A stretch of 64,000 bases of DNA, taken from Armatimonadota bacterium. GTDB lineage: Bacteria; Armatimonadota; SYMT01. The stretch spans positions 30,305 to 94,304 of the forward strand of contig JBKBRF010000028.1 in the NCBI GenBank assembly GCA_046292385.1. Direction: 5' to 3'. The notes under the pieces are model-generated. The model did no database searches, had not been told where the DNA came from, and saw nothing but the letters and a program-made list of their open reading frames with translations. The stretch's first letter is position 1. Each line of letters begins with the position of its first letter. Below are positions 3,375 to 51,684 of the stretch, in pieces. The translations under genes and the position numbers were made by a program.

Positions 3375-3383
3375 GCGAAGGCG

Positions 3384-3468
3384 GTTGCAGGTTGGCAAGT
3401 TGGCAGGTTGCAGGTTGGGTTCTCCGAAGGCGGGGCTCTTAACCTGGAACTTGCAACCTGCCAACCTG
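3384..3468. repeat. GCAGGTT heptamer/octamer inverted-arm intergenic element
   Basis: GGTTGCAGGTTGGCAAGTTGGCAGGTTGCAGGTT followed by complementary AACCTG/AACTTGCAACCTGCCAACCTG. Confidence 0.85.
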
Positions 3469-13355: not shown

Positions 13356-14942
13356 ATGCTTGATCGAAACGAGCTTCGGAAGGCGCTGCGGCACGAGGGG
13401 GGCCTCAGCCGGCGGCTCTTCCTTACCTACGCCTCCGCCCTGGCCGGCGCCGCCTGGTGCGCGGAGCAGGGGTCGGCCGCCCAAGACGCGCCCACCTTTA
13501 GCGCTAACCCGTTCAGCCTTGGCGTCGCCTCCGGCGACCCGGACGCGAGCGGCTTCGTCCTCTGGACCCGCCTCGCGCCTCGTCCCCTCGATCCGGACGG
13601 CGGCATGGAGCCGGTCCGCGTGCCGGTGAGCTGGGAAGTGGCGGAAGACGAGGGGATGCAGCAGGTGGTGCAGCGGGGCACCGCCACCGCCGCGCCGCTG
13701 CTGGGCCACTCCGTGCACGTGGAGGTGAAGGATCTGCAGCCGGACCGCTGGTACTGGTACCGGTTCCGCGCCGGGGAGGCCGAGAGCCCGGTCGGCCGCG
13801 CGCGCACCCTGCCGGAAGCCTCCGCTGCCGCACAGGGGCTCCGGTTCGCGTTCGCCTCCTGCCAGCATTACGAGACGGGTCTCTTCACCGCCTACGAGCA
13901 GATGGCGAAGGACGACCTCGACCTCGTCTTCCACCTGGGCGACTACATCTACGAGGGCGCAGGTCGCGAGACGGGAGTGCGGCGACACGCGGGCCGGAAG
14001 CTCTACACGCTGGCCGACTACCGGATCCGGCACGCGCAGTACCGCGCCGACCCGCTGCTGCAGGCGATGCACGCGCGCTGCCCCTGGCTCGTCACGTGGG
14101 ACGATCACGAATTCGAGAACAACTACGCGGCCGAGATCTCCTCGCTGCGGGGCGTCGACCCGGACGAATTCCTGATCCAGCGAGCGAACGCCTACCAGGC
14201 CTATTACGAGATGATGCCGCTCCGGCGCCGCTCAATCCCCCGCGGCCCGGACATGCTGCTCTACCGCAAGGCCTCGTTCGGCCGGCTGGCGGAGCTGCTG
14301 GTGCTGGACACGCGGCAGTACCGTACGGACCAGCCGAACCGGGACGCCGCGTCGCCCCTCAACGACGCCGCGCTCGATCCGAAGGCGAGCCTGCTCGGCA
14401 GCCGCCAGCGGGAGTGGCTGCAGTCGTCGCTCAAGGAGTCCGGCGCGACCTGGAACGTGCTGGCGCAGCAGGTGATGATCGCGCTGGTCGACCGCTCGAC
14501 AGGCGAGGGGGAGCGCTACTCCATGGACCAGTGGCCCGGCTACGCGCACGAGCGGATGGAGCTGGTCCGTTTCTTGTCCGACGCGCGCGTGTCGAACCCG
14601 GTGGTCCTCACGGGGGACATTCACTCCAACTGGGTGAACGACGTCCGCACGGACGACCGCCAGCCGGAGCTGCCGGTGGTGGCGACCGAGTTCGTCGGCA
14701 CCTCCATCTCCAGCGGCGGCAACGGGATGGACCAGCCGGCCGGTCTCGACGCCCTACTCGCGGAAAACCCGGGCGTCCGGTTCCACAACCGGCAGCGCGG
14801 CTACGTGCGCTGTACCCTGAGCCCCACCTCCTGGCGGAGCGACTACGTGGTGATCGACGACGTGCTCCAACCGGGCGGAAAGGCCTCCACCCGCGCCTCG
14901 TTCGTGGTGGAGGCCGGGAAACCGGGCGCGCGACCGGCGTAG
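13356..14942 (+). CDS. phoD: Alkaline phosphatase D (Tat-exported)
   Basis: 'SRRLFL' Tat motif; 'FSLGVASGDP', 'HLGDYIYE', 'WDDHE', 'LDTRQYR', 'LTGDIHSNW'. Confidence 0.95.
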   Translation: MLDRNELRKALRHEGGLSRRLFLTYASALAGAAWCAEQGSAAQDAPTFSANPFSLGVASGDPDASGFVLWTRLAPRPLDPDGGMEPVRVPVSWEVAEDEGMQQVVQRGTATAAPLLGHSVHVEVKDLQPDRWYWYRFRAGEAESPVGRARTLPEASAAAQGLRFAFASCQHYETGLFTAYEQMAKDDLDLVFHLGDYIYEGAGRETGVRRHAGRKLYTLADYRIRHAQYRADPLLQAMHARCPWLVTWDDHEFENNYAAEISSLRGVDPDEFLIQRANAYQAYYEMMPLRRRSIPRGPDMLLYRKASFGRLAELLVLDTRQYRTDQPNRDAASPLNDAALDPKASLLGSRQREWLQSSLKESGATWNVLAQQVMIALVDRSTGEGERYSMDQWPGYAHERMELVRFLSDARVSNPVVLTGDIHSNWVNDVRTDDRQPELPVVATEFVGTSISSGGNGMDQPAGLDALLAENPGVRFHNRQRGYVRCTLSPTSWRSDYVVIDDVLQPGGKASTRASFVVEAGKPGARPA

Positions 14943-14951
14943 CTACCGGTC

Positions 14952-15031
14952 GGTTAGCAGGTTGGCAGGTTGCAAGTTACAGGTTCGGAACCCCGCCCCC
15001 GGGCGGCCCAACCTGTAATTGCTAACCTGCC
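14952..15031. repeat. GCAGGTT inverted-arm intergenic element
   Basis: GGTTAGCAGGTTGGCAGGTTGCAAGTTACAGGTT ... CAACCTGTAATTGCTAACCTGCC. Confidence 0.8.
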
Positions 15032-15091
15032 ACTCTGGGCATCCGGTTGCCGGCGAGGCGACCTTTTCGCCCACGCAGGCCGACGGCTTTA

Positions 15092-15227
15092 GGGTGCGGG
15101 AGCTTGCTCCCGCTCTCGCCGCCGACTGCGGAAGCGCACCGTCGCCTCCTGCGAATGCCTGCTTTCGCCTGGAAGCATTCTGCGTTCGCGGCAGGCTCCC
15201 CAAAGCGGAAGCAAGCTTCCGCACTCC
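15092..15227. repeat. Inverted pair of REP-like palindromes (GGAG/GGGTGCGG-type)
   Basis: GGGTGCGGGAGCTTGCTCCCGCT (15092-15114) and AAAGCGGAAGCAAGCTTCCGCACTCC (15202-15227) face each other, and each is internally palindromic. Confidence 0.7.
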
Positions 15228-15286
15228 ACAGGCGGGACCGGTTTCGGATCCCGCTGCACCGGGCTGCCTGCGACACCCAGCCGCGT

Positions 15287-16390
15287 CTACCGGGACTCCC
15301 ATCGCACTTCGCAGCTCACGGCGGCGGGCTCCACGAAGCGGGCCAGCCGGTCTCCTTCCGCTGTGAGCTCCTCTCTCGCTGCCTCCGGCACCGCCCCGAA
15401 CGGGGAGAGGGTGAGGATGGCTGTCTTGCGCTGGCGCGTGACCTTCCACGTGCCGGCGACGAAGCCGTCGACCAGGAAGGTCGGCAGAACGAGCGCGTTC
15501 TTCGTGATGACGGTTTTCCGGTGCTCGTCCGCGATGACGCGGGTGCGGTCGGCGTGGGAGAGGATCAGGTTGTCGAAGTCGGCGACGAACCGCGGCGGGG
15601 CGGGCGTCTCCTCCGGCGGGCGCGGCGCCTCCGGCAGGTCGAACAGCTCCCGGTTCCGCTCGTCCCGGAAGACCGCCAGCCGCGGGCGAAGCTCCTCCAG
15701 CACGGGGGCCAGGCCGCCGCGGCCGGACCACGCCGTCACGTCGGCGGCGGACGCGGGCCCGAAGGCGGCGAGGTAGCGGAGCACCAGGGTGTGGGCGTTG
15801 TCCGCGGTGTCGAGCGGGTGACCGAGCCATTCTTCCGCCAGCGCGAACTCGCAGTCGGCGCGGTAGCCCCACTCGTGGGAGCCGGGCACCAGGACCAGCG
15901 GGAGCTGGGTGCGGACGGTGTATCCCATGGCGCGCTCGTCGGCGCCCGGAAAGCGCGCCAGCAGCTCGTTCCTTAGCTCCGTAAAGGTGCGGGGCCGCTC
16001 CGCATAGAGCCGGCGCGCCTCCGCCAGCACCGTCTCCAGCGGGAGCGCGTCGAGCCGCTCGCGCAGGATGCTGCGGACCGCCGAGTCGAGCGCGGGCTGG
16101 ATCGCCGGGCGGAGCGCCGTGAAGTCGCGCCGCGACCAGAGGTGCAGCGTACAGCGCATCAGCGGCGCGCGGACCACCTGGCCCGAGTGGAGCAGCGGGA
16201 CCAGCTCCTCGCGCCGGAACTCCTCCAGCCGGCACCAGAGGCCGACGAACGGCGGCCGCGCCTGCTGCGCCTGGAGGCCCGCCAGCCGCTCGATCGCCTC
16301 CACCGCGGAGACGGCTTTCCGCCGCAGCAGCATCTGCCGCGCCAGGAGCGCCCGGTTCAGCGCGCGTTGGGTCAGGATCGGGTGGGACAT
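15287..16390 (-). CDS. HTH_42 winged-helix DNA glycosylase, AlkZ-like
   Basis: 'LNRALLARQMLL', catalytic-type 'LQAQ' (QxQ) motif, 'LWCRL', 'MRCTLH', 'YLAAFGPAS..D..AWSG', 'FDNLIL', 'DGFVAGTW'. Confidence 0.85.
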   Translation of the reverse strand: MSHPILTQRALNRALLARQMLLRRKAVSAVEAIERLAGLQAQQARPPFVGLWCRLEEFRREELVPLLHSGQVVRAPLMRCTLHLWSRRDFTALRPAIQPALDSAVRSILRERLDALPLETVLAEARRLYAERPRTFTELRNELLARFPGADERAMGYTVRTQLPLVLVPGSHEWGYRADCEFALAEEWLGHPLDTADNAHTLVLRYLAAFGPASAADVTAWSGRGGLAPVLEELRPRLAVFRDERNRELFDLPEAPRPPEETPAPPRFVADFDNLILSHADRTRVIADEHRKTVITKNALVLPTFLVDGFVAGTWKVTRQRKTAILTLSPFGAVPEAAREELTAEGDRLARFVEPAAVSCEVRWESR

Positions 16391-16454
16391 GCGGTGTTCT
16401 CCAGGTGCGGGCGGGAGGCGCGCCCACTCTCTTGTAGCACGCTCGCCTGGTGGG

Positions 16455-16653
16455 TTGGGAAGCCGCTGGTTGAACGACCCCCGATTCCAACGAAAGGGCG
16501 ACCCGTTTCAGGGAACGCGGCGGTGCGCCCAGGGGTCTGCTAAGACGGAAGCACCTCCTGCCGGATTGTGCTCCTGTCTCCTCCAACCTGGCTGAGCTGG
16601 GTCGGAGAGTGGTGTAACTCTGCCCCGCCGGTTTTGCCGGCGGGGCCTTTTTT
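16455..16653 (+). ncRNA. Candidate structured small RNA or leader (unidentified)
   Basis: Several local hairpins followed by an intrinsic terminator, with no + strand gene upstream to terminate; boundaries approximate. Confidence 0.35.
16622..16653 (+). terminator. Rho-independent terminator
   Basis: GCCCCGCCGG-TTTTG-CCGGCGGGGC followed by CTTTTTT. Confidence 0.85.
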
Positions 16654-16681
16654 CTCGCGCCGGCCGGCCGGCAGCGCGCCC

Positions 16682-16714
16682 GATGTATTTCTCACGGGGA
16701 TCCGGCCTTTATCC
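16682..16714 (+). promoter_or_regulatory. Putative ECF-sigma promoter, copy 1 (GATGTAT-N18-CTTTA)
   Basis: Same bipartite motif and spacing as 18185-18217; about 75 bp upstream of the 16788 start. Confidence 0.6.
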
Positions 16715-16787
16715 GGGTGGAAGACGGCGGTGCCCTGGCGGCGAGACCGCCAATCGACCGCATCCTGGTTTACGAAGGAGATCACCC

Positions 16788-17399
16788 GTGGCTACTACGC
16801 TTTCACTTCGCTTCCGCCGCGCCCTGGCGCTGGCGGCGGCGCTGACCGTGCTGCTCCCCGTCTTCGCCACCCCGGCGGAAGCCCGCCGTGGACGCGGTGG
16901 GGACGACCGCGGCGTCGGCGACGACCGCGGCGGCGACCGCGGCGGCGACGATGACCGGAACGACGACGGCGGCGGCCGTGGCCGGGGCCGGGGCGGCGAT
17001 GACCGCGGCGGCAGCCGGGGACGAATCCGCAATGATTACCGCCTGGTACCGACTGCCGCCGGCGAGGAGGACGGCCTGTTCGGCAAGGCAAGGCTGGAGG
17101 CGCGGTCGGACCGCTTCCGACTGCGCGTGCAGGTGAAGACGCCGGTCCTGCCGCAGGGCACCGTGCTGCAGGCCTACGCGCTGGTGAACGGCGCGGGCGG
17201 CGTGCAGCGGCTCTTCCTCGGCTCCCTGGTGCTCCAGCCGAGCGACAACCACGCGAACCTGATGGAGGACAAGGTCGACCTGCGCGCTTTCCCCAGCGGC
17301 ATCACCTCGCCGGGCCAGGTCGCCGGCTTCGAGGTGACGGACCAGGATTCCACCGTGACGCTGCTGACCTCGGTGCTGACGCGGTCGCGCAGCCGCTGA
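16788..17399 (+). CDS. Secreted hypothetical protein with Gly/Asp/Arg-rich (RGGDD) N-terminal repeats
   Basis: AAGGAG RBS and GTG at 16788; signal peptide ending PAEA; RRGRGGDD/RGGDD repeats then a beta-rich domain of about 120 aa. Confidence 0.8.
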   Translation: MATTLSLRFRRALALAAALTVLLPVFATPAEARRGRGGDDRGVGDDRGGDRGGDDDRNDDGGGRGRGRGGDDRGGSRGRIRNDYRLVPTAAGEEDGLFGKARLEARSDRFRLRVQVKTPVLPQGTVLQAYALVNGAGGVQRLFLGSLVLQPSDNHANLMEDKVDLRAFPSGITSPGQVAGFEVTDQDSTVTLLTSVLTRSRSR

Positions 17400-17418
17400 T
17401 CTGCTGCGATCCGCGGTC

Positions 17419-17462
17419 CGGGACCGGAGGCGTTTCCGGTCCCGGGCCTTCTTCGCGTTTTG
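17419..17462 (+). terminator. Probable terminator hairpin after the secreted protein gene
   Basis: CGGGACCGGA-GGCGTT-TCCGGTCCCG followed by an interrupted T-rich tract. Confidence 0.55.
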
Positions 17463-17604
17463 GGGTGACGTATCGGGTGGAGTGTTGCGTTTTGTATTAT
17501 GGTGGCGCGGGCGTACCGCGGGATGCGCCGGGGGTATGCTGAGAGTGAGGACCCGGCCGAATTGTGGCTCTGGCTAACTACGGCGCCCGGTATGCGGTGA
17601 GAAG

Positions 17605-18186
17605 GTGTACGTGAGAGAGCAGGACTGGCCCCTTGTCCGCGCCTGTGAGGCGGGAGACCGGAAGGCGTGGGAGACGCTCATCCGGCGCTACGAGCGCCTG
17701 TTGATGGCGATCCCGCGCCGCTGCGGACTCTCCGAGGAAGACGCCGCCGACGTCTTCCAGACCGTCTGCATGAAGCTGGTGGAGAACCTCTCCCGGCTGC
17801 GAGACGAGCGACACCTCACCGGCTGGCTCATCACCACCGCCAAGCACGAGTCGTGGAACATCCACCGCAAGCGGAAGCGGCTGGAGGCGCTCGTCGAGCC
17901 GGAGGCGCTCGGCAGCACCGACGCGACGACCGACCTCCTCGTCTCCGACGAACTCCTCCCGGAAGAGGCGGTGCAGCGCCTGGAAGAAGCGCAGCTCGTG
18001 CGCGAGGCGCTGGAGGATCTGGGCGAGCGCTGCCGGCTGCTGCTGCAGCTCCTCTATCATTCCGATCCCCCGCTCACCTACGCGGAGGTGGCGGCGCGCC
18101 TGAACGTCTCCACCGGCGCGATCGGTCCCACCCGCGGCCGGTGCCTGGTCCAGCTCAAGAAGATCCTGGATCGCAACGGCTTTTGA
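17605..18186 (+). CDS. ECF sigma-70 family RNA polymerase sigma factor
   Basis: Region 2 'GDRKAWETLIRRY..DAADVFQTV..WLITTAK'; region 4 'LGERCRLLL..YAEVAARLNVSTGAIGPTRGRCL.QLK'. Confidence 0.93.
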   Translation: MYVREQDWPLVRACEAGDRKAWETLIRRYERLLMAIPRRCGLSEEDAADVFQTVCMKLVENLSRLRDERHLTGWLITTAKHESWNIHRKRKRLEALVEPEALGSTDATTDLLVSDELLPEEAVQRLEEAQLVREALEDLGERCRLLLQLLYHSDPPLTYAEVAARLNVSTGAIGPTRGRCLVQLKKILDRNGF

Positions 18187-18217
18187 TGTATCTCCGCGCC
18201 GTTTCGGGTCTTTAACC
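18185..18217 (+). promoter_or_regulatory. Putative ECF-sigma promoter, copy 2 (GATGTAT-N18-CTTTA)
   Basis: Begins in the sigma stop codon, upstream of the anti-sigma/CHAT genes; matches 16682-16714. Confidence 0.6.
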
Positions 18218-18244
18218 ATGCGGATGGGCGCTGCCGGCCCACCT

Positions 18245-18334
18245 GTTGCAAGTTGGCAGGTTGCAGGTTAGCAGGTTGGGAACCCCCGCTGACGGGATGC
18301 AAACCTGCAACCTGCCAACCTGCAACCTACCAAC
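18245..18334. repeat. GCAGGTT inverted-arm intergenic element
   Basis: GTTGCAAGTTGGCAGGTTGCAGGTTAGCAGGTT ... AACCTGCAACCTGCCAACCTGCAACCTACCAAC. Confidence 0.85.
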
Positions 18335-18370
18335 AGACTTCAGCCCACCCGGACTTGAAGAGAGTTAACG

Positions 18371-18976
18371 ATGGCTACCCGCGACCACCTGACCCCTGAA
18401 GAGCTCCTTGCCTGTGCGGAGGGGAGCGCGGACGACCGCCTGCTGGCGCGGGTCCGCCGCCACCTGGAGAGCGGGTGCGCCGGCTGCTCCGCCGAGCTCG
18501 ACTCCTGGACGCGGATGCACTCCGCGCTGCAGGCCGACCGGGAGCCGGGCGCGCCGGACTGGGTGCTGGAGCGCGCGCTGGGAATGATCGACCGCATCGA
18601 GCGGCAGCCGACGCTGTGGGAGCGGATCACCGCCGCCCTGGTGTGGGACAGCCGCACGCAGCCGGTCCCTGCCGGGATCCGGGACGCGGGCAGCAACGCC
18701 TTCTCACTGCTGTTCAAGGCCGACTCGATCCACGTCGACCTGCTCTGCGAGCGAGAGGGCAACTCCTGGCGGATCACCGGCCAGGTCCTCTCCGAGCCCC
18801 CGGCGGAGCTGCCGTGGCGCGCCAGCCTGCACGGGGGCGGCGAGAGCCGGGAAGCGGAGGTGGCGCGGGGGGGCGAGCTCTCCTTCGAGAACGTGCCACC
18901 CGGCACCTACAGCCTGACGCTCACCAGCCAGGGCCGCTCGATCCTGCTGCCGGACATCCGGCTCTCCCCCGCCTGA
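18371..18976 (+). CDS. Soluble Zn-binding anti-sigma-like protein with C-terminal carboxypeptidase-regulatory-like beta domain
   Basis: 'HL..EEL' plus 'HLESGCAGC' (H-x4-C-x2-C, a ZAS variant); 'LVWDS...AGIR'; 'GELSFENVPPGTYSL'; no TM segment. Confidence 0.75.
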   Translation: MATRDHLTPEELLACAEGSADDRLLARVRRHLESGCAGCSAELDSWTRMHSALQADREPGAPDWVLERALGMIDRIERQPTLWERITAALVWDSRTQPVPAGIRDAGSNAFSLLFKADSIHVDLLCEREGNSWRITGQVLSEPPAELPWRASLHGGGESREAEVARGGELSFENVPPGTYSLTLTSQGRSILLPDIRLSPA

Positions 18977-18983
18977 GCCCCGG

Positions 18984-21788
18984 ATGTCTTCTCTCGTTCA
19001 ACAACTACTGGCGGCGTCCCCCGAGGAGCGCGCGCGCCTGCTCCGGGGCAAGCCCGACGCCGGCTTCTCCGACGTGAACGAGCTTGCCGAGCGGGCCCGC
19101 GCCGCCGCGCGCGCCAATCCGGCGGAGGGGCTGCAACTGGCGCAGACCGCCCGGGCGCTGGCGGAGGCGATTGCAGATCCCCGCGGGCGGGCGGTCGCCT
19201 CCCGCGCGCTGGGGGTGGCGCTCTGGGCGCGCGCCGGCTGGAGCGAGGCGCTGGCCGCCTTCACCGAGGGGGAGCGGGCGGCGCTCGACGCGGGCGACGC
19301 GCTCCTGGCGGCGCAGGTGCCGATCCTGGCGGTCGAGGTGCTGGCGCAGCTCGGGCGGCATCCGGAGGCGCTCGCGCTGGCCGACCGCCTGGAAGCGCAG
19401 CTCCGGTCGCTGGGAGCGGAGCTGGACGCCGCCAAGGTGGTGGCGAACGCGGGGAACATCCACTTCCAGCGCGGCGAGTATGCCGCGGCGCTGCAGTCGT
19501 GGACCCAGGCGCTGGAGTTCTTCCGTGCGGCGGGTAACGAGCCGGCGGTCGCGCAGCTCCAGATCAACATCGCCAACGTCCTCACCCACCTGAACCGGCT
19601 GCCGGACGCCGTCCGCCGCTACGAGGAGGCCCGCAGCGCCTTCGAGGCCGCCGGGGTGGAGTCGGTGGTCGCGGGCGTCGAGGGAAACCTCGGCTTCCTG
19701 CAGTTCGTGGCCGGCCGCTATCCGGAGGCGCTGCGCAGACTGGAGCAGGCGCGGACCCGCTTCGAGCGGCTGGAGCTCCCGAAAGACCTGGCGAAGTGCG
19801 ACCGCGAGACGGCGGACATCTACCTGGAGCTGAACCTGCTGCCGGAGGCGGTGGAGGCGTATGAGCGGGTGCGGCCGCTCTTCCAGGAGCTGCAGGTGCC
19901 GGTGGAGGCAGCCCGCTGCGACCTCGGGCTGGCGACCGCTCTCGGGCGGCTCGACCGGCGCGCAGAGGCGGAGGAGGCGCTGAAGCGCGCGGAGGCGGCG
20001 TTCCGCGCTGCCGGGAACGAGGTCGGCACCGCCCGGGCGGCGCTGCTGCGCGTGGAGCTGGAGCTGGAGGAGGCGCCGGACCGGGAGCGAAGCGCGCGCG
20101 CGGCGGAGCGTATCTTCCGCCGCCACGGGATGGTGCTCGCGGCGGCGCGGGCGCGGCTGGCGCCGCTCGAGCAGCGGGTGGAGGCGGGCGGAAGCCCGGT
20201 GCGGTCGCTGCGGCGCCTGCGGGCGGAGGTAGAGACCGAGGCGCTCTTCTCCCTGCGCTGGCGGGTGGAGGCGGCGCTGGCCCGCGCGGCGGTGAATGCG
20301 GGGAAGCCCCGGTCCGCGCTGACGCACTACCGGCGAGCGGTGGAGGAGATCGAGCGGGCGCGGCACCTGCTGCCGGGGGAGGAGCTCCGCATCGCCTTCC
20401 TGCGGGACAAGACGCGCCTGCTGGAAGAGCTGCTGGGCCTCCTGCTCGACCGCGGCACGCCCGCGGCGCTGCGGGAGGCGTTCCGGCTGGCGGAGCGCGC
20501 CAAGTCGCGCGTGCTGGCGGAGCTGCTCTCCGGCCCGGTGGAGGCGCTGGAGAGCGACGACCCCGAGCGGCAGGCGCTGACGGCGCGGCTGGAGGAGCTC
20601 CGGGCGCAGCTGAAGTGGGACCACGACCGCCAGGAGACCGGCGGCGGAGAGGCGAGCCGCCTGCCTGCTGCCGACGCGGAGCTGCCGGAGCGGGTGCGCC
20701 GCCTGGAGCAGGAGTACCTGCAGACCCGCCGTCGGCTGCAGCTCTCCGGAGGTCGGCAGGTCGCCTTCGGCGAGCCGCCGGAGCTGCGCGCGCTTCAGTC
20801 GCTCCTGCAGGACGACGAGCAGCTGGTGGAGTACGTGACGGTGCGGGACGAGGTGATCGCCTTCGTGGTCGACCGCCGCCGCTTCCACGCGGTGCGCGGC
20901 CTCGCCTCCCGCCGGGAGGTGGAGGAGCTGGCCCGGCGGCTCGGCCTCCAGTGGGCGCGGGCGGCGTCGGGCGGGCTGCCGCCGCTGTTCCGGGACCGGC
21001 TGCTCCAGAGCACGGAAGCGGTGCTGCGGGAGCTGTACGAGGCGCTGGTGGAGCCGCTGGAGCCGCTGCTCACCGGGCGACGGATCACGCTGATCCCGCA
21101 CGGCGCGCTGCACGGCGTGCCGTTCCACGCGCTGCACGACGGGGTCGACTACCTCCTGGAGCGCTGGGAGATCGCCTACGCCCCCAGCGCCGGCGTCTGG
21201 CGCGCCTGCCGGCTGCGGCCGGAGCCGGAGACCCGGGAGTCGCTGCTCTACGGCGTCTCCGATCCGGCGCTGCCGCACGTGCGGTCGGAGGTCGAAGGCC
21301 TCGCCGCCCTGCTCGACAGCTCCCGCGCGCTGCACGACGGGCAGGCGACCCTCGCCGCCGTCCCCCGCGACGGAGCGTTCCGGTACCTGCACTTCGCCAC
21401 GCATGCGGTCTTCCGTGAGGACAACCCGCTCTTCTCCGGCCTGAAGCTGGCGGACGGCTGGCTCATCGCGCACGATCTCTATCGCCGCCGGCTGGAGTGC
21501 TGCCTCGCCACCCTCTCCGCCTGCCGGACGGGGGTCAGCCACGTGGCTCCGGGCGACGAGACGCTGGGGTTGGTCCGCGGCTTCCTGCACGCGGGCGCCC
21601 GCGCGGTGCTGGTGAGCCTGTGGGTGGCGGACGATACGGCGACCGCGGAGCTGATGCAGCAGTGTTACGCGCGCCTGGCGGCGGGAGAGAGCCGCGCCGC
21701 AGCGCTGCGGGAGGCTCAGCGGGTGGTCCGCTCCCGTTATCCGCACCCGTTCCACTGGGCGCCGTTCGTGATGGTGGGAGCTTCCTGA
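18984..21788 (+). CDS. TPR-repeat CHAT domain (caspase-like) protease
   Basis: N-terminal TPRs; 'AERAKSR', 'IPHGALHGVPFHAL', catalytic His in 'LHFATHA', catalytic Cys in 'LSACRTG', 'VSLW.ADD', 'HPFHWAPF'. Confidence 0.93.
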   Translation: MSSLVQQLLAASPEERARLLRGKPDAGFSDVNELAERARAAARANPAEGLQLAQTARALAEAIADPRGRAVASRALGVALWARAGWSEALAAFTEGERAALDAGDALLAAQVPILAVEVLAQLGRHPEALALADRLEAQLRSLGAELDAAKVVANAGNIHFQRGEYAAALQSWTQALEFFRAAGNEPAVAQLQINIANVLTHLNRLPDAVRRYEEARSAFEAAGVESVVAGVEGNLGFLQFVAGRYPEALRRLEQARTRFERLELPKDLAKCDRETADIYLELNLLPEAVEAYERVRPLFQELQVPVEAARCDLGLATALGRLDRRAEAEEALKRAEAAFRAAGNEVGTARAALLRVELELEEAPDRERSARAAERIFRRHGMVLAAARARLAPLEQRVEAGGSPVRSLRRLRAEVETEALFSLRWRVEAALARAAVNAGKPRSALTHYRRAVEEIERARHLLPGEELRIAFLRDKTRLLEELLGLLLDRGTPAALREAFRLAERAKSRVLAELLSGPVEALESDDPERQALTARLEELRAQLKWDHDRQETGGGEASRLPAADAELPERVRRLEQEYLQTRRRLQLSGGRQVAFGEPPELRALQSLLQDDEQLVEYVTVRDEVIAFVVDRRRFHAVRGLASRREVEELARRLGLQWARAASGGLPPLFRDRLLQSTEAVLRELYEALVEPLEPLLTGRRITLIPHGALHGVPFHALHDGVDYLLERWEIAYAPSAGVWRACRLRPEPETRESLLYGVSDPALPHVRSEVEGLAALLDSSRALHDGQATLAAVPRDGAFRYLHFATHAVFREDNPLFSGLKLADGWLIAHDLYRRRLECCLATLSACRTGVSHVAPGDETLGLVRGFLHAGARAVLVSLWVADDTATAELMQQCYARLAAGESRAAALREAQRVVRSRYPHPFHWAPFVMVGAS

Positions 21789-21886
21789 GGGATGAGGGAT
21801 GAGGGATGAGGGATGAAGGATGAGGGATGAATCCGGACCTTCCGTGTCCGGTCGCTCCTACTCTCTCGTTCTCCTTCTCTTTCTCG
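21787..21886 (+). repeat. GAGGGAT-heptamer composite 3'-end element, copy 1
   Basis: (GAGGGAT)n-GAATCCGGACC...CGCTCCTACTCTCTCGTTCTCCTTCTCTTTCTC; related copies at 35108-35180 and 59750-59835. Confidence 0.8.
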
Positions 21887-22060
21887 GGAGCGCGCCGGGG
21901 CGAGCCCGGTTGGCGGGAGGAGCAGCCGCGCGCGAACAGTTCTTCGATCTTTCTTCTCCCCTCTTTTTCATCTAGTCACTGGCTGAAGTAACCTGGGAGT
22001 TCTGCCGACGAACGGTACGAAATGGTACCGATTTGCAGGGCCGGCTCCGGAGTCGAACCG

Positions 22061-23356
22061 ATGCGCTTAACCACGATTGGATTGGCAGTCTTGATCCTGC
22101 TGGCCGGGGCCACGGAGGCCCAGGCGCGGCGGGGGCGGAACCGGCTGAAGGAGCTCACCAAGAATGAGCTGGTGGTCCGCCTGGCTCCAGGGACCGACGC
22201 TCAGAAGTTCGCCCGGGATTACCGGGTGAAGGTGATCTCCCAGGGCACCGGCAGCGGCCGCTACCGGGTGAAGATGCGGAACACCCGGGATGCCGCGCGC
22301 CTGCTGGCGAAGCGGCTGCAGGATACCCGCATCATCAGCGCGGACAAGAACCTCCCGGCCCCCTCGCCCCCGGGGGAGCAGGCGCAGTGGACCACCGCTT
22401 TCGACGGCGACCGCGGCCCGCGCGCCTACGACGGCCAGCTGGCGATCGGGCAGGTCCGCTTCACGCAGGCGCCGACGCTGGCAGACGGCGCCGGCGTGAC
22501 GGTGGCGGTTCTCGATACCGGCATCTCCCGGCGGCACCCGCACCTGGCGGCGCAGACGGTGGAGGGCTGGAACTTCGTGGACGACAACGCCGACACGGAC
22601 GACCGCCCCTACCAGCTCGACCTGGACGGGGACCGGGTCCGGGATGAGGGCCTGGGCCACGGGACGGTGGTCGCCGGCCTCATCGCCCGCTTCGCCCCGA
22701 AAGCGACGCTGCTGCCGGTGCGCGTGCTGAACAGCGAGGGCATGGGAACGGTCTGGGACGCGGTGCGCGGCATCGAGTACGCCATCTCGAAGGGCGCGCG
22801 GGTCTTGAACCTGAGCTTTGGCGTGCAGGAGCGCTCCGAGATCCTGGAAGACGCGATCAAGGAGGCGGAAGACGCGGGGGTGTTGATCATCACCACCGCC
22901 GGCAACCACGCCAGTTCTCGCCCGCAGTACCCGGCGAAGTACTCTCACGTGGTGGCGGTCGGCGCCGTGAACGCGGACGACAGCCGGGCGAAGTTCTCCA
23001 ACTTCGGGAGCGACGTCGACATCTACGCGCCGGGAGTCGACGTGGTGAGCACCTTCTGGGACGGCACCTACGTGGCGTGGTCCGGCACCTCGTTCGCCGC
23101 GCCGATGGTGAGCGGCACCGCCGCCCTGATCCTCTCCCGCAACCCGGGCCTCTCGCTGGAGGACGTGGGCGACCTGATCGAAGACACCGCCCGCCGCGCA
23201 GAGGCCGCCCGCAGCCTGCGCCGCGGCCGAGGCGGTGATGACGGCGGCAACAGCGGCCCCGGAGGCGGCGACCGCACCGAAATCCTCGACGTCGACTCCG
23301 CCGTCACCGCCGCGATCAACGGCGGGGGTGATGACGACGATGAGGATGACGATTAG
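22061..23356 (+). CDS. Secreted S8 (subtilase) serine peptidase
   Basis: Signal peptide ending AQA; catalytic triad 'VAVLDTG', 'GHGTVVAG', 'GTSFAAP'; oxyanion 'AGN'; acidic C-terminal tail. Confidence 0.93.
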   Translation: MRLTTIGLAVLILLAGATEAQARRGRNRLKELTKNELVVRLAPGTDAQKFARDYRVKVISQGTGSGRYRVKMRNTRDAARLLAKRLQDTRIISADKNLPAPSPPGEQAQWTTAFDGDRGPRAYDGQLAIGQVRFTQAPTLADGAGVTVAVLDTGISRRHPHLAAQTVEGWNFVDDNADTDDRPYQLDLDGDRVRDEGLGHGTVVAGLIARFAPKATLLPVRVLNSEGMGTVWDAVRGIEYAISKGARVLNLSFGVQERSEILEDAIKEAEDAGVLIITTAGNHASSRPQYPAKYSHVVAVGAVNADDSRAKFSNFGSDVDIYAPGVDVVSTFWDGTYVAWSGTSFAAPMVSGTAALILSRNPGLSLEDVGDLIEDTARRAEAARSLRRGRGGDDGGNSGPGGGDRTEILDVDSAVTAAINGGGDDDDEDDD

Positions 23357-23362
23357 GGGCTA

Positions 23363-23578
23363 ATTCACCACAGAGCGCACAGAGGACACGGAGATTCCGA
23401 ACCAGGAGATTCACCGCGGAGAACGCAAAGGACGCAGAGAGGGGAACAGAAGAGCGTGACACCGGGTCGCTGTACGGGGCTCGAGACGCGCAGCCGGCCC
23501 CTTCCTCTTGGCGAGCTTGGCGTTCTTGGCGGTAAAGGCTGGTTCTCTCCGCGTCCTCTGCGTCTCTGCGGTGAATCC
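23363..23578. repeat. Nonamer-based inverted intergenic element (CACCGCAGAG/ACGCAGAG type)
   Basis: GGAGATTCACCGCGGAGAACGCAAAGGACGCAGAGA pairs with CTCTCCGCGTCCTCTGCGTCTCTGCGGTGAATCC; lies between convergent genes. Confidence 0.75.
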
Positions 23579-23600
23579 GGTTCGGATCCGGCCCGGAAGC

Positions 23601-25925
23601 TTACCGCCGGTGGAGCGTGAAGTAGATCCGCTCCGGCGTGAGCGGTAGGTCGTTGACCCAGGCGCCGGCAGCGTCGTGGACGGCGGCCTGGAGCGCGGCG
23701 AGGGTGGGGACGATCACCGGCTCGCCGATGCCTTTGACGCCGAACGGGCCGTTCTCGCTCGGGACCTCCACGTAGCGGTTGCGCAGCACCGGCGTGTCCA
23801 TCGGGGTGGGCAGGCGGTAGTCGGAGAGGTGCGTGTTGCGGTTGCGGCCGCCCTGGATCTGCATCTCCTCCATCCAGCCCCAGGAGAGCCCCTGCACCGC
23901 GCCGCCGTCCATCTGCCCCTCCACCTCGTACGGGTTGACGGCGAGGCCGACGTCGAGCGACTGGTAGAGCTCCAGCGCCTCCATCACGCCGGTGTCCGGG
24001 TCGACCCGCACCTTCACGATCTGGGCGGAGATCACCGGGTGGCTCGGCTCATTGGCGAAGGTGCCGGTGCCGACCAGTGGCCCGCCGATGGTGCGGAGGG
24101 CGACCTGTCCCAGCTCCGCCAGGGTGACGCTGTTCTCCGGATCGTCCTTCACCGCGATGCGGCCGATGCGCCGGCCCTGCTCGCTGGGCCAGACGTCCTG
24201 CACCAGGGAGTCTTCGTCCGCTTCCAGGTGCTCCGCCGCGAGGGCGAGCATCTTGCGGCGCAGGTCTTCCGCGGCGCGCTTGACGGCGTTCCCCATGGAG
24301 AAGAGGACGACGGAGCCGCCGGAGCCGGTGGCGTAGGGGGCGCTGTCGGTGTCGCCGCGGACCACGCGCACCGCCTCGTACGGCACGCCGGTCACCTCCG
24401 CCGCGATCTGGGCGAAGCCGGTGTCGGTGCCGGTGATGTCCATGGCGCCGGAGAAGACCTTGAGCGTGCCGTCCTCGCCGAGGGAGCAGACGGCGCTGCC
24501 GGGGCCGGCGCCGTTGGTCCACTCGCCCACGGCGACACCCCAGCCTTCGTTCGGACCCTTCCGGCGCTCGCTCCAGCCCGCCAGCTCGGCGGCGGTCCTC
24601 AGCGTCTCCTTGAACGCCACCCGGCGGAGAGGGGCTCGGTCATTGACCCGCTTCTCGCCTTCCTCGACCATGTTCCGGAGGCGGAATTCGACCGGGTCCA
24701 TGCCGATCGCGTCGGCGCAGCGGTTGAGGTTCGCCTCGGAGGCGTAGGTGCCCTGCGGCGCCCCGGGGGCGCGGTAGGCGGCGGTGCCCGGCTTGTTGGT
24801 GTAGATGCCGTAGGCGTCCCACTTGACGTTCCGGAAGCCGTAGACGCCGATGATGCGGCTGGTGGCGTGGATGCTGGCGCCGGGGACGTTGCCGCAGTCC
24901 CACAGGCCGACCGCCTGGCGCGCGGTGACGGTGCCGTCCTTCTTCACGCCGGTCTTCACCCAGATCGTGGCGGCGGGGGCGGGACGGCCGTCGAGCATCT
25001 CCTCTTCGCGGCTGTAGACGATCTTTACCGGGCGGCCGGTCATCTGCGCCAGGAGGACGGCGTAGGGGTGGACCAGGGTGCCGAACTTACCGCCGAAGCC
25101 GCCGCCGATCGTCTGGCCGATCACGTTGATGTCGGACGCGGGGATGCCAAGGCTGCTGGCAACGCCGCTGCGGATGGCGAAGATGCTCTGGGTGCTGGTC
25201 CAGATCGTCACCTTGCCGCTGGCGTCGACCCGCGCCACGCAGGCGTGCGGCTCGATGTAGGTCTGGTGGACGCGCGGGATGCGGTAGACGTCTTCCAGCA
25301 CGAAGTCGGCCTCCGCGAAGCCGGCCTCCACGTCGCCTGCTTCGAAATGCGCCTCCTGCGCCACGTTCCCCCAGCGGCCCAGCTCCGCCCACGGGCTGCC
25401 GGGAACGGCGTCGACCGTCTTCGCGTCGTCCCGAAGCCGCGGCGACTCCGGCCGGATGCCCTGCTCCTCCGTATCGACCGGGGCGAGCAGCTCCCACTCC
25501 ACCTCGATCGCGTTCACGCCGTCCCGCGCGATCTCCGGCGAGACAGCGCAGACGCAGGCGATCTTCTCCCCCTCGTAGAGCACCACGTCGGAGGCGAAGA
25601 GACTCTGGGAGAGGCGGAAGCCGTGGACGGTGTCGACCGTCTCCATCGTCCGCTCGCCGCCGAGCGACTCCTCCGTGAGCACCTTGACCACCCCGGGGAT
25701 CGCTTCTGCCCGGCGGGTGTCGATCCGCTTGATCCGCGCGTGGCCGTGCGGGCTGTGCAGGAAGGTGGCCCAGAGCTGCCCGGGCAGGTTCACGTCCGCC
25801 GCGTAGCGGGCCGCGCCGGTCACCTTGTCGACGGCGTCGACGCGCGGGACCGGCTTGCCGAGCACGTCGTACTCCGGCGTCTCGTGGGGGGACTGCGGCT
25901 GCGGTCGGTGGAGGAGATCGGTCAT
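23601..25925 (-). CDS. Xanthine dehydrogenase/CoxL family molybdopterin-binding subunit
   Basis: 'VPRVDAVDKVTGAARYAAD', 'IGGGFGGK', 'AYRAPG', 'GQMDGG..QG', 'KGIGE'; start MTDLL after an AGGAG RBS. Confidence 0.93.
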   Translation of the reverse strand: MTDLLHRPQPQSPHETPEYDVLGKPVPRVDAVDKVTGAARYAADVNLPGQLWATFLHSPHGHARIKRIDTRRAEAIPGVVKVLTEESLGGERTMETVDTVHGFRLSQSLFASDVVLYEGEKIACVCAVSPEIARDGVNAIEVEWELLAPVDTEEQGIRPESPRLRDDAKTVDAVPGSPWAELGRWGNVAQEAHFEAGDVEAGFAEADFVLEDVYRIPRVHQTYIEPHACVARVDASGKVTIWTSTQSIFAIRSGVASSLGIPASDINVIGQTIGGGFGGKFGTLVHPYAVLLAQMTGRPVKIVYSREEEMLDGRPAPAATIWVKTGVKKDGTVTARQAVGLWDCGNVPGASIHATSRIIGVYGFRNVKWDAYGIYTNKPGTAAYRAPGAPQGTYASEANLNRCADAIGMDPVEFRLRNMVEEGEKRVNDRAPLRRVAFKETLRTAAELAGWSERRKGPNEGWGVAVGEWTNGAGPGSAVCSLGEDGTLKVFSGAMDITGTDTGFAQIAAEVTGVPYEAVRVVRGDTDSAPYATGSGGSVVLFSMGNAVKRAAEDLRRKMLALAAEHLEADEDSLVQDVWPSEQGRRIGRIAVKDDPENSVTLAELGQVALRTIGGPLVGTGTFANEPSHPVISAQIVKVRVDPDTGVMEALELYQSLDVGLAVNPYEVEGQMDGGAVQGLSWGWMEEMQIQGGRNRNTHLSDYRLPTPMDTPVLRNRYVEVPSENGPFGVKGIGEPVIVPTLAALQAAVHDAAGAWVNDLPLTPERIYFTLHRR

Positions 25926-26096
25926 CGCGGGCGCGCTCCTGGTTTCAAAAGGGACACAGGCTATGATACCGCTCCTGCCCCCGCATCTCCTACGTCGGGC
26001 TCGCATGCTTCCGTGCTTCAGCGCGGCGGCGGGTGGGGTAGACCTGCCTGAATGACGGGCGGCCCATGTGACGGCCCCCGGAAGGAGAGACCCGTG

Positions 26097-30980: not shown

Positions 30981-31038
30981 GTTAGCAGGTTGCAGGTTAG
31001 CAGGTTGCAGGTTAGCAGGTTGCAGGCTGGCAGGTTGC
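30981..31038. repeat. GCAGGTT tandem repeat (single arm)
   Basis: (GTTAGCAGGTTGCAG)x3 followed by GCTGGCAGGTTGC. Confidence 0.85.
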
Positions 31039-31341
31039 GGGTGGCGTGGTGGGTTCAGGGGAAGACCACCAGTAACCAAACCTCCGCCGACGCCACCGGC
31101 GGCCTCACGGGGGCATCCGGGAAGAACTCACCCCTTTGCGAAAGCAGGAACCGGCGCGAGAGGGAGGCCGAGCAAGCTTGTCACTCCGGCAGTCCCGCCT
31201 GGCTTCGCCCCCGAGTCGAGCGGACGCTACGCCCCGAATGGCTGCCGAACGCGCGCATCGGCACGGGATCGTGCCCTCCGCGGGGAGCGTCAGATCCTGC
31301 CAACACTTCCCGGATGCACCGCTCATGCGTTTAACGCACTG

Positions 31342-35107: not shown

Positions 35108-35180
35108 AGAGCAGTAGGAGCCTCCGGAGCGGGAGGTCCGGATTCATCCCTCATCGTTCCGCCCTCATCCTTCATCCCTC
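35108..35180 (-). repeat. GAGGGAT-heptamer composite 3'-end element, copy 2
   Basis: Reverse complement reads AGGGATGAAGGATGAGGG...GATGAGGGATGAATCCGGACC...GCTCCTACT, just after the ndh stop. Confidence 0.75.
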
Positions 35181-42890: not shown

Positions 42891-45077
42891 ATGGCTGTTT
42901 ACGTGGCGCATACGCCCAACCCGGGGGGTAATTGGCACTCGCTCTCGGAGCACCTGCGGGAGGTCGCCCGCCTCGCGCGGGAGTTCGGAGCGCCGATCGG
43001 CGTGGGAGAGCTGGCCTACTGGGCCGGCCTCTGGCACGACCTCGGGAAGTACACGCCGGAGTTCCAGCAGTACCTCCGCGCCTGTCACACCGCGGCGCTG
43101 ACCGGGAGTACACCCCCACCGCGCGGAGATGCTCCGCACAAACAGTTCGGCGCCGCCCTCGCCGTGCACTATGGGGCTTCACTGCTCGGCTTCGCGATCC
43201 TGGGGCACCACGGGGGGCTCCCGGAGCGGGCGGAGCTGAAGCGGGAGGCTGCGGAACGATCCCTCCCCTCGCTCGCGGAGCTGCTGGAGACGGCCGGCGC
43301 CGACCTGCCGGAGTTGAAGATGCGGCCGGACCTCGCCGCGGAGCTGAGACGGCTGGCGGCGGATCCGCGCGAGGCGGATTTCCTGATCCGGATGGTCTAC
43401 TCCTGCCTGGTCGATGCCGACTCGCTCGACACTGAGGCGCACACCCGGCCGGAGGTCGCTGCCGCACGGCAGGCGCCGCGGTTGGGCCTGCACGAGATGC
43501 GGGACCGGCTCCACGAGGACCAGGCGCACTTGCAGGCGCAGGCAGCGGTAACTCCGTTGAACGCTCTCCGGCGCCAGATTTACGAGGCCTGCGCGGCAGC
43601 GGCGGCAGGGGCCCCGGGCGTCTACCGGCTCACGGTGCCGACCGGCGGCGGTAAGACCCGAAGCTCGCTCGCCTTCGCGCTGGAGCACGCGGTGGAGCAT
43701 GGGCTCCGCGGGGTGATCTACGCAATCCCTTACACCAGCATCGTGGAGCAGACCGTCGGGGAGTTCGAGAAGATCCTGGGAGAAGAGGCGGTGCTGGAGC
43801 ATCACTCCGCCGTCGAGCCGGACGCCCGCAGTAAGCGCGAGGAATGGCTGCGGCGGCTGGAGTGCCAGAACTGGGATGCTCCCCTGGTGGTGACGACCAC
43901 GGTGCAGCTCTTCGAGAGCCTGTTCGGGAACCGGCCCGCCCGCTCTCGAAAGGTCCACCGGATGGCCCGCTCGGTCATCGTGCTGGACGAGGTGCAGGCG
44001 CTGCCACCCAAGCTTCTGCGCCCGTTGGTAGACGGGCTGCGCTTGCTCTGCGACCGGTACGGCAGCACGGTGCTGCTCTGCACCGCTACCCAGCCGGTGC
44101 TCGGCTGCGACGTGCTGGCAGAGGCCGGATTCCCCGACATCCCCGAGATCGCTCCGGACCCTCCGCAGCTCTTTCGGAAGCTGCAGCGGGTGGAGTTCGA
44201 TCTCTCGCCGCTGGCGGAGGGGGAGTGGACGTGGGAGCGGGTCGGTGCCGCGATGCGGGAGACGGACCAGTGCCTGGCAGTGTTGAACACCCGGCGGGAT
44301 GCCCTGGCGCTCCTCGACGCCGTGAAGGACCTCCAGCCGCTCCACCTCTCCACGCTGCTGTGTGGCCGCCACCGGCGCGACACCCTGGAGGAGATCCGGC
44401 GCCGGCTGCGCCAGGGCGAGCCGTGCTACGTCGCCTCCACGCAGGTGGTGGAGTGCGGCTGCGATCTGGACTTCCCGCGAGTGCTGCGGGCGCTCGGGCC
44501 GCTCGACCGCATTGTCCAGGCGGCGGGCCGCTGCAACCGGGAGGGGCTGCGTCCCCGGGACGAGAGTCGCGTCCTGGTCTTTCGGCCGGAAGGCGGCGGC
44601 GCTCCCCGGGGCTCTTACGCGGTGGCGCTCAGCGTTGCCGACCGCCTGCTCCGCGGCGATGCCAACCTGCACGACCCCGCGCTCTACGAGCGGTACTTCC
44701 GCGAAGCGTTCCTGCAGGACGACACCGACGCCCGCGGCGTCCAGAAGTCGCGGAAGGAGCTCGACTTCCCCGCGGTGGCGGAGAAGGTGCGCCTGATTCC
44801 GGAGGAGACGGTCGGAATCCTGGTCCGCTACAAGCCGGCGGAGGCGGAGATCGAGGCACTGCTGGAGGAGATCCGCGACTGGCGCCAGATGACCTCAGAG
44901 CTGTGGCGCCGCGTGCAGCCGTTCCTCGTCTCCGTCTCCGCCCACGAGTTCGACCGCTTCCGGAATCAAGCCCTGGTCCACGAAGAGGTACCCGACCTCT
45001 GGCTCTGGCTCGGCAGCTACGACCCGGTGCGCGGTCTCACCGACGCCCAGCGGGACCCGGCTGATCTGATCATCTGA
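42891..45077 (+). CDS. cas3: CRISPR-associated helicase/nuclease Cas3 (type I-C)
   Basis: HD domain 'HL..VA', 'WHDLGK', 'GHHGG', 'LVDAD'; SF2 helicase 'PTGGGKT', 'DEVQ', 'TAT', 'QAAGRCNR'. Confidence 0.97.
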   Translation: MAVYVAHTPNPGGNWHSLSEHLREVARLAREFGAPIGVGELAYWAGLWHDLGKYTPEFQQYLRACHTAALTGSTPPPRGDAPHKQFGAALAVHYGASLLGFAILGHHGGLPERAELKREAAERSLPSLAELLETAGADLPELKMRPDLAAELRRLAADPREADFLIRMVYSCLVDADSLDTEAHTRPEVAAARQAPRLGLHEMRDRLHEDQAHLQAQAAVTPLNALRRQIYEACAAAAAGAPGVYRLTVPTGGGKTRSSLAFALEHAVEHGLRGVIYAIPYTSIVEQTVGEFEKILGEEAVLEHHSAVEPDARSKREEWLRRLECQNWDAPLVVTTTVQLFESLFGNRPARSRKVHRMARSVIVLDEVQALPPKLLRPLVDGLRLLCDRYGSTVLLCTATQPVLGCDVLAEAGFPDIPEIAPDPPQLFRKLQRVEFDLSPLAEGEWTWERVGAAMRETDQCLAVLNTRRDALALLDAVKDLQPLHLSTLLCGRHRRDTLEEIRRRLRQGEPCYVASTQVVECGCDLDFPRVLRALGPLDRIVQAAGRCNREGLRPRDESRVLVFRPEGGGAPRGSYAVALSVADRLLRGDANLHDPALYERYFREAFLQDDTDARGVQKSRKELDFPAVAEKVRLIPEETVGILVRYKPAEAEIEALLEEIRDWRQMTSELWRRVQPFLVSVSAHEFDRFRNQALVHEEVPDLWLWLGSYDPVRGLTDAQRDPADLII

Positions 45078-45175
45078 GGGTTTTTGCGGAACGTGGATGA
45101 GATTGCGTTTCTGAACGGAACTTAAGTGTGAGTAAGCGACCGGGTCGCCGGTCGTAGGGAGGACGAGCGAACGCT

Positions 45176-48464: not shown

Positions 48465-48517
48465 TTAGCGCCCGGGCGGAGGCCGACGCCTCCGCCCACT
48501 GCACCCGGGAGCGCGCC

Positions 48518-50180: not shown

Positions 50181-50194
50181 CCCGGAGCCCGGCC

Positions 50195-51681: not shown

Positions 51682-51684
51682 GCG

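Follow-up and report, generated by a model that had tools for sequence, protein, structure and literature searches.

A conserved cassette of ECF sigma factor, putative anti-sigma factor, TPR-CHAT protease, and subtilase in Armatimonadota and other phyla: a candidate protease-gated sigma switch

Sigma factor release by a CHAT-domain protease has so far been shown only for craspase, which is guided by CRISPR (clustered regularly interspaced short palindromic repeats). Whether a similar gate may operate independently of CRISPR is the question raised by a locus at positions 16,682–23,356 of a 64,000-nucleotide stretch of DNA from an Armatimonadota bacterium (contig JBKBRF010000028.1, G+C ~70%; this whole stretch is referred to as the window). 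Here, genes for a sigma factor of the extracytoplasmic function (ECF) type, a putative anti-sigma factor (named ASF here), a tetratricopeptide repeat (TPR)-CHAT protease, and a secreted subtilase of peptidase family S8 lie in one orientation behind a gene for a small secreted protein. We found that the first four of these form a cassette that is strongly conserved across several phyla. The reading that we favor, to which we assign a probability of roughly one half, is a cytoplasmic proteolytic switch, in which CHAT would cut ASF, free the sigma factor, and thereby drive an operon that includes the exported subtilase. The five genes of the locus are:

16788..17399 (longest open reading frame from 16683), + strand: secreted protein with Gly/Asp/Arg repeats and, at its C-terminus, a beta-sandwich-like domain; signal segment, no family match

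17605..18186, + strand: ECF (group IV) sigma factor; Sigma70_r2, Sigma70_r4, and TIGR02937 matches

18371..18976, + strand: predicted soluble anti-sigma factor ASF, 201 aa; ChrR-like zinc anti-sigma domain (~6–75) and CarboxypepD_reg-like beta-sandwich (~85–198)

18984..21788, + strand: cytoplasmic TPR-CHAT cysteine protease (separase/craspase-like), 934 aa; Pfam CHAT and TPR_12 matches, proposed dyad H807/C847

22022..23356, + strand: secreted S8 subtilase; signal peptide, I9-like propeptide region, D/H/S triad, and an RRGRGGDD/Gly-Asp insertion near the C-terminus

The listing of open reading frames (ORFs) placed all five on the + strand where an earlier interpretation made from the letters alone (the sequence-only reading) had put them, and the ORFs, Pfam/NCBIfam models, and motifs bear out the identities given there. 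The sigma factor is a member of the ECF (group IV) sigma-70 family, with matches to Sigma70_r2 (1.2e-11), Sigma70_r4 (8.2e-07), and the sigma70-ECF model TIGR02937 (88.7 bits vs. a cut-off of 42.9).

The linkage of these genes was surveyed from two anchors. Using ASF, we ran its profile over 401 genomes of the window's phylum; 179 were positive, many only through N-terminal matches to longer proteins. Setting aside the window itself, we kept the 40 best places and assigned partners by ORF clustering. The CHAT gene adjoins ASF in 39 of these 40 loci, the exception being a contig of 1,210 nt, and a sigma gene of the same cluster and an S8 gene are each present in 35, with most absences due to contig ends; over 41 ASF-anchored loci, 36 have a sigma gene of this cluster next to ASF. 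One locus (L023) has no S8 gene though the flank is present, two (L038 and L043) have no sigma gene, and one (L047, G400:C30) has no sigma gene nearby and carries CHAT and S8 genes that are each broken into several overlapping ORFs; this copy looks decayed, likely with frameshifts. Within 8 kb of the 41 loci, no further gene family was found in more than eight loci besides antisense shadow ORFs.

Using CHAT as the anchor, a pattern scan of species-representative genomes returned 80 loci, and 457 relatives were confirmed; this set shares some contigs with the ASF-anchored one, and related genomes are not independent. According to the record titles, the loci belong to Armatimonadota (Chthonomonadales), Acidobacteriota (Pyrinomonadaceae, Blastocatellia, Terriglobales, and Acidiferrales), Chloroflexota, Verrucomicrobiota (Verrucomicrobiia), Dormiibacterota, and Meiothermus hypogaeus; the title of locus L074 names Chthonomonas calidirosea, a cultured species. 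Partner counts were restricted to the 49 loci, from six phyla by title, that have a flank of 2.5 kb or more to either side. Among these, ASF is present in 48, S8 in 47, sigma in 42, and all three in 40. The expectation that similar neighborhoods would exist in other genomes thus held across both phyla and gene orders, the latter being distributed as follows over 91 non-redundant loci:

sigma-ASF-CHAT-S8: 60 loci

ASF-CHAT-S8: 9 loci

sigma-CHAT-ASF-S8: 7 loci

sigma-ASF-CHAT: 6 loci

divergent sigma plus ASF-CHAT-S8: 3 loci

ASF-CHAT: 2 loci

S8-ASF-CHAT: 2 loci

S8-ASF-CHAT-sigma: 1 locus

CHAT-ASF-S8: 1 locus

Given that the linkage is kept through rearrangement of the gene order, function, and not shared ancestry alone, is likely responsible for it. 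Two controls were considered: none of the three partner genes occurs in the 14 kb examined around the genome's second CHAT gene, and two plasmid-borne TPR-CHAT relatives adjoin unrelated genes. Spacing, computed from the start codons of the longest ORFs, is tightest between ASF and CHAT (median 6 nt; 65 of 80 loci do not exceed 20 nt, and 4-nt overlaps are frequent), followed by CHAT and S8 (median 53 nt) and sigma and ASF (median 81.5 nt). In the window, the CHAT gene starts 7 nt past the ASF stop codon.

ASF is predicted to be a soluble, ChrR-like, two-domain anti-sigma factor on account of its profile matches, the family members that match zf-HC2, its AlphaFold2 (AF2) fold, and the absence of a transmembrane (TM) segment. 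ASF itself has no Pfam or NCBIfam match, a word-indexed homologue search recovered only ASF, and tblastn against plasmids returned no match. An exhaustive HMMER search recovered 1396 cluster representatives at E ≤ 1e-3 and 165 at E ≤ 1e-10, nearly all of the latter being ~200 aa in length; the profile also matches the N-termini of many 400–550 aa proteins across the phylum. The window protein carries the sequence HLESGCAGC, giving a zinc motif (H6 plus H31-x4-C36-x2-C39) that is one residue longer than H-x3-C-x2-C; both the x3 and x4 forms occur in the family. In an alignment of 69 members, H31, C36, and C39 are kept in at least 90% of sequences, and conservation extends to A-x-L-x-F-D-S-R, R104, and a C-terminal GQ.L...GEF.L...PG.Y.L.L pattern. 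When these members were scanned singly, 20 matched zf-HC2 and 25 matched CarboxypepD_reg, and none of the 69 showed a TM-like segment by hydropathy (maximum KD19 of 0.82 in the window ASF).

Comparison with solved structures in the PDB points the same way. The ASF profile matches ChrR (8.7e-05, residues 1–85), RsiW (1.4e-04), RslA (8.5e-04), and DdvA (2.2e-03), and its C-terminal half matches the transthyretin-like repeats of NOMO. The AF2 model (predicted local distance difference test, pLDDT, of 90.4) consists of a three-helix bundle (9–56), a helix IV (63–75), and a beta-sandwich (85–198), with the individual helices at 9–16, 22–33, 37–56, and 63–75 and the lowest confidence at ~71–80 and ~101–110. 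Foldseek ranks the ChrR-SigE complex (2q1z) first for this model, albeit with a weak score (E 6.8e-03). Taken together, the profile matches to ChrR, RsiW, RslA, and DdvA, the zf-HC2 members, and the predicted helix bundle uphold the initial description of this protein as anti-sigma-like.

The protein encoded next to ASF has both a CHAT domain score above the cut-off (PF12770, 9.7e-61, 206.2 bits vs. 24) and the His-Cys dyad expected of the family, together with TPR repeats (TPR_12, 3e-22). The dyad lies in the motifs HFATHA and LSACRTG; H803, H807, and C847, as well as many surrounding residues, are invariant in 78 orthologues, and the dyad His and Cys are present in 89 of 89 non-redundant CHAT sequences (three were missed by regular expressions and confirmed by inspection). 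The AF2 model (pLDDT 91.2; predicted template modeling score, pTM, 0.87) shows ~22 TPR helices (~11 TPR pairs), a helical linker, and a CHAT fold, with Csx29 (8eey_B, 5e-18), separase (1.5e-14), and DdvA (5e-11) as Foldseek neighbors. No N-terminal signal or TM segment was found in this protein. A complex prediction of CHAT (82–934) with ASF (55–201), made from alignments and without controls, gave scores of 0.13 and 0.04 vs. a mark of 0.32, which speak neither for nor against such a complex.

The S8 protein is a member of the peptidase S8 family by score (Peptidase_S8, 1.9e-50 over model positions 1–282 of 288; 172.2 bits vs. a cut-off of 21.8) and by its D/H/S triad (VAVLDTG, GHGT, and GTSFAAP), and begins with a hydrophobic segment. 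We also considered a mycosin, the S8 protease associated with type VII secretion systems; the corresponding model (TIGR03921) scored 176.3 bits, which does not reach its cut-off of 278.75. In nearly all S8 orthologues, a propeptide-like region comes after an initial segment of the signal or lipoprotein type, and the N-terminal hydrophobic segment was detected by hydropathy in 67 of 82. Given the export signals on S8 and their absence from the other three proteins, S8 is exported, and the sigma factor, ASF, and CHAT are cytoplasmic. A PADLOC search for defense families returned only generic subtilase and IetS-like matches, both on the S8 protein.

The fifth gene fared differently. Its product, which the sequence-only reading had cast as a partner of the system, likely starts at the GTG at 16788, behind a GAAGGAG ribosome-binding site; a signal-like segment (KD19 2.01) runs up to ...ATPAEA, after which come RRGRGGDD and the Gly/Asp/Arg repeats. 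The protein has no Pfam or NCBIfam family match. A homologue of its C-terminal domain was found in only 1 of 40 related loci (L022, in genome G001 of the same family; phmmer 3.9e-08), with a poly-Gly stretch in place of the repeats. The RRGRGGDD string recurs in the C-terminal region of the window's S8 protein as an insertion that replaces a conserved segment, and this insertion is missing from the 36 other S8 ORFs compared, including that of the genome holding the L022 homologue. Look-alikes in the Atlas reach feature scores of at most 0.79, and the structure rows, which are SOD/CHRD-like sandwiches, fall below the bar; these serve as leads only. The protein is a lineage-specific local neighbor and not a conserved member of the module, and its proposed partnership falls away with the motif being unique to this genome. 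Separately, a DUF4382/DUF5666 lipoprotein with a Gly-rich linker lies near the module in ~8 loci (e.g., L019 8887–10086, L026 8695–10161, and L027 5446–6990), its gene being placed downstream of S8 in some and between sigma and ASF in others. These loci may thus share a loose tendency to carry a secreted accessory gene, with the lipoprotein as a facultative fifth component in the role that the RRGRGGDD protein may have here.

How might the cassette work? In the switch that we favor, the sigma factor would be held by the N-terminal, ChrR-like anti-sigma domain of ASF. ASF and TPR-CHAT would be made together from their tightly spaced, probably translationally coupled gene pair, and the C-terminal beta-sandwich of ASF would associate with TPR-CHAT. 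A cytoplasmic cue sensed by the TPR superhelix would then switch on the His-Cys dyad, and CHAT would cleave ASF, the candidate sites being an exposed loop (94–109, containing the nearly invariant R104) and a low-confidence linker (~76–84). Degradation of the ASF remnant would free the sigma factor, which would in turn drive the operon with the exported subtilase as its main local output. We infer the two binding events, the cleavage, the cue, and the role of S8 as an output; the CHAT-gated mechanism first put forward for this locus is plausible by analogy.

Alternative explanations differ mainly in where they place the sensor and the substrate. ASF could be a self-sufficient sensor of the ChrR/RsrA type, with sigma released by oxidation or ligand binding at its zinc site or beta-sandwich and with CHAT and S8 as co-transcribed outputs. 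The high conservation of H31, C36, and C39 in the 69-member alignment, the position of ChrR as the best match in both sequence and fold, and the placement of CHAT and S8 downstream in the same orientation would all suit such a sensor. However, the H-x3/4-C-x2-C zinc ligands are missing in 29 of 93 non-redundant ASF homologues, yet the CHAT linkage stays; the ASF-CHAT gap is far tighter than those of the other two pairs; and ASF and CHAT remain adjacent where no sigma gene lies nearby (the nine ASF-CHAT-S8 loci), making this explanation unlikely. The same tight coupling suggests a stable complex, which would also fit a non-proteolytic partner switch in which TPR-CHAT acts as an anti-anti-sigma factor that titrates ASF off sigma with no cutting. 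TPR arrays are established protein-binding scaffolds, and the DdvA study (PMC11506125) reports that the H862A and C907A variants still down-regulate ddvS like the wild type in unperturbed cells. Against this, the dyad and many neighboring residues are invariant in the 78 CHAT orthologues from several phyla, which would not be expected of a pure scaffold, and we regard partner switching with no proteolysis as very unlikely.

If CHAT does cut, its substrate could lie elsewhere, be it the sigma factor, the S8 precursor prior to its export, or proteins of the cell that are cut in a suicide or defense response of the caspase-like kind, leaving ASF as only a securin-like inhibitor or adaptor. The structural neighbors of CHAT include craspase and separase, the latter with securin as its partner; the S8 linkage in the CHAT-anchored loci is as tight as that of ASF; and roles in phage defense are described for both DdvA and craspase. 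We nonetheless consider a different substrate quite unlikely, as PADLOC found no defense family besides the generic subtilase models, no extra gene is conserved within 8 kb of the 41 loci, and the S8 orthologues bear export signals. A signal made outside the cell by the secreted S8 protease, with or without the RRGRGGDD protein, was one option raised in the sequence-only reading and would account for the strong S8 linkage and for the string shared between the small secreted protein and the S8 tail in this genome. But ASF, sigma, and CHAT have neither a TM segment nor a signal peptide, and therefore no component spans the membrane; furthermore, the homologue of the RRGRGGDD protein in a single related locus and the S8 motif being an insertion unique to this genome render an extracellular signal highly improbable.

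Several observations weigh against the proteolytic switch itself. Besides the zinc motif missing from some homologues, as noted above, ~10 motif-less homologues from Armatimonadota lack the first anti-sigma helices, and most of these still adjoin a sigma gene. These variants, found among L046–L050, L040, L042–L044, and L074, have only helix IV and the beta-sandwich, and it is thus this portion, not the zinc domain, that is the best conserved part of ASF. In two loci of the Meiothermus type (L109 and L126), a pair of short ORFs that encode the beta-sandwich alone lies between S8 and CHAT. The sigma gene is the loosest-linked member of the cassette in the CHAT-anchored counts, and a search of the regions upstream of 75 sigma genes revealed no common promoter-like motif: enriched 6-mers were AT-rich words only, and the best bipartite 5-mer/4-mer pair occurred in 7 of the 75 sequences, the same as in the antisense control. 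Autoregulation by the sigma factor is therefore unsupported. Transcription as a single operon is also uncertain in the window, given that a hairpin-forming repeat splits the sigma and ASF genes and 233 nt split the CHAT and S8 genes. Finally, the exported S8 protease cannot meet the cytoplasmic trio, and the switch leaves its equally tight linkage unexplained.

The two repeats that interrupt the locus are:

18245..18334, unstranded: repetitive extragenic palindromic (REP)-like repeat between the sigma and anti-sigma genes, with arms 93% complementary

21786..21830, unstranded: tandem heptamer (TGAGGGA) x 6.4, beginning at the CHAT stop codon and inside the 233-nt CHAT-S8 gap

The REP-like palindrome is made of GCAGGTT-type words, and its 17-nt core has 311 matches with at most 2 mismatches in the 7-Mb genome vs. 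0 for the reversed control. Similar arrays also lie at 3383–3418 and 30981–31042 of the window, and the repeat is not specific to the module. A reverse-complement relative of the heptamer repeat (TTCATCCCTCATCC) lies at 35143–35180, and repeats of this type may represent a second dispersed family.

Upstream of the first gene, ~230 nt (16391–16655) contain no convincing ORF and are closed by a strong terminator-like hairpin and T-run on the + strand (16620–16655); this stretch could be a small RNA or leader. An Rfam search over 15500–24000 returned two matches below their gathering scores, mir-449 for the REP hairpin and SgrS for the terminator-like one, and both are taken as chance. The flanking genes (13356–16390 and 23601–26006) have no relation to the module; they encode a PhoD-like phosphatase and, on the - strand, an AlkZ-like DNA glycosylase and a subunit of the molybdopterin xanthine-dehydrogenase family, and the related loci do not share these flanks. 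At 42891–51684, 19.5 kb downstream of the module, lies a complete-looking type I-C CRISPR-Cas system (cas3, cas5c, cas8c, cas7, cas1, and cas2) with an array of ~14 repeats at 50636–51684. It is the sole CRISPR-Cas system in the window, and none of the related loci showed linkage to cas genes.

Phyla of soils and hot springs carry the cassette widely, and its three cytoplasmic proteins, being soluble and small to medium in size, are amenable to binding and cleavage assays both in vitro and in E. coli. It thus offers a soluble, widely distributed test bed for CHAT-gated sigma release, and would tie a caspase-like intracellular switch to a secreted protease, with possible roles in nutrition, competition, or development.

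Among known anti-sigma factors, the closest likeness of ASF is to ChrR, the partner of sigma-E in Rhodobacter sphaeroides, which is likewise soluble and combines an N-terminal zinc anti-sigma domain with a C-terminal beta-rich sensor domain. The latter is a cupin in ChrR, whereas ASF has a CarboxypepD_reg/transthyretin-like sandwich, and we know of no dedicated neighboring protease for ChrR. On the side of the protease, separase and securin offer a comparable arrangement of a TPR-like superhelix and caspase-fold protease held by a tightly bound partner (Foldseek 1.5e-14); separase, however, is eukaryotic, much larger, and has no link to a sigma factor. ASF as a securin analogue is an analogy that we draw with caution.

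The literature that we found bearing on a soluble system of sigma factor, anti-sigma factor, TPR-CHAT, and S8 comprises only the accounts of ECF54, DdvA, and type III-E CRISPR. The ECF54 group was reportedly described in an original paper by Huang et al. 2015 and taken up in the later classification by Casas-Pastor et al. 2021. In supplementary file 1 of the latter (PMC7826278), ECF54 is 100% Actinobacteria, with a carboxypeptidase-regulatory-like (CarboxypepD_reg) protein at +1 and subtilases and TPR/CHAT proteins nearby; the group is noted for a 'lack of putative AS factor' and has a predicted promoter of GTATCAG (-35) and CTCC (-10). Proteolytic control has been suggested for ECF54 in PMC8999054. 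The domain inventory (sigma factor, CarboxypepD_reg protein at +1, TPR/CHAT, and subtilase) is the same as in our cassette, as compared by description only. In contrast, our cassette occurs in Armatimonadota as well as in Acidobacteriota, Chloroflexota, and other phyla, and the +1 protein carries a predicted anti-sigma domain, as indicated by the profile matches, zf-HC2 members, and AF2 model. The ECF54 promoter motif was found in 0 of the 75 sigma upstream regions and in 0 of the 4 window intergenic regions scanned. The printed view is hereby corrected: such an ECF neighborhood is neither confined to Actinobacteria nor, in the loci surveyed here, devoid of a putative anti-sigma factor. The configuration, for which the sequence-only reading knew of no worked-out mechanism, is a variant of a catalogued kind rather than wholly unknown, as both the ECF54 context and DdvA are already in print.

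DdvA of Myxococcus xanthus is, per PMC11506125, a transmembrane anti-sigma factor with a periplasmic TPR-CHAT, described by its authors as the sole characterized anti-sigma factor with such a domain, and self-cleavage has been proposed for it and is unproven. DdvS/DdvA resembles the cassette in placing an ECF sigma factor under a zinc anti-sigma (ZAS) domain physically joined to a TPR-CHAT of the separase/craspase type, which has a His-Cys dyad, and the N-terminal domain and cryo-EM chains of DdvA are matched by the ASF profile (2.2e-03) and the CHAT model (5e-11). It differs in being a single polypeptide (cytoplasmic ZAS, TM helix, and periplasmic TPR-CHAT) and in controlling an island of CRISPR and CBASS (cyclic oligonucleotide-based antiphage signaling system) genes, whereas the window has two genes 7 nt apart whose products have no TM helix or signal peptide, ASF adds a beta-sandwich, and S8 is a constant companion. 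Proof of cleavage is held back in DdvA because its trigger has not been identified and the protein sits in the membrane.

In type III-E CRISPR, PMC10028731 describes cleavage of Csx30 by Csx29, which relieves the inhibition of CASP-sigma. There too, a TPR-CHAT protease cuts a soluble inhibitor of an ECF-like sigma factor, and Csx29 is the best structural match to the window CHAT; the difference is that Cas7-11 together with target RNA activates Csx29. The window CHAT itself is not a Csx29, scoring 35.5 bits vs. a cut-off of 300 for NF041237 and being the sole match to that model in its own genome. With the only CRISPR-Cas system in the window being of type I-C and 19.5 kb away, the independence from CRISPR that had been supposed for this locus stands. 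Among the solved structures that the ASF profile brought up (E up to 1), no molecule was named Csx30.

These comparisons allow a broader, tentative proposal, which we regard as possible but well short of probable. ASF may be a securin-like dual inhibitor that clamps the sigma factor with its N-terminal domain and TPR-CHAT with its beta-sandwich, and whose destruction by that protease, driven by a cytoplasmic cue, would fire both the sigma factor and the subtilase. The free-standing four-gene cassette, present in at least six phyla in these surveys and in Actinobacteria as ECF54, would then represent the general form of the system, with DdvA and the Csx29/Csx30/CASP-sigma set as its specialized derivatives.

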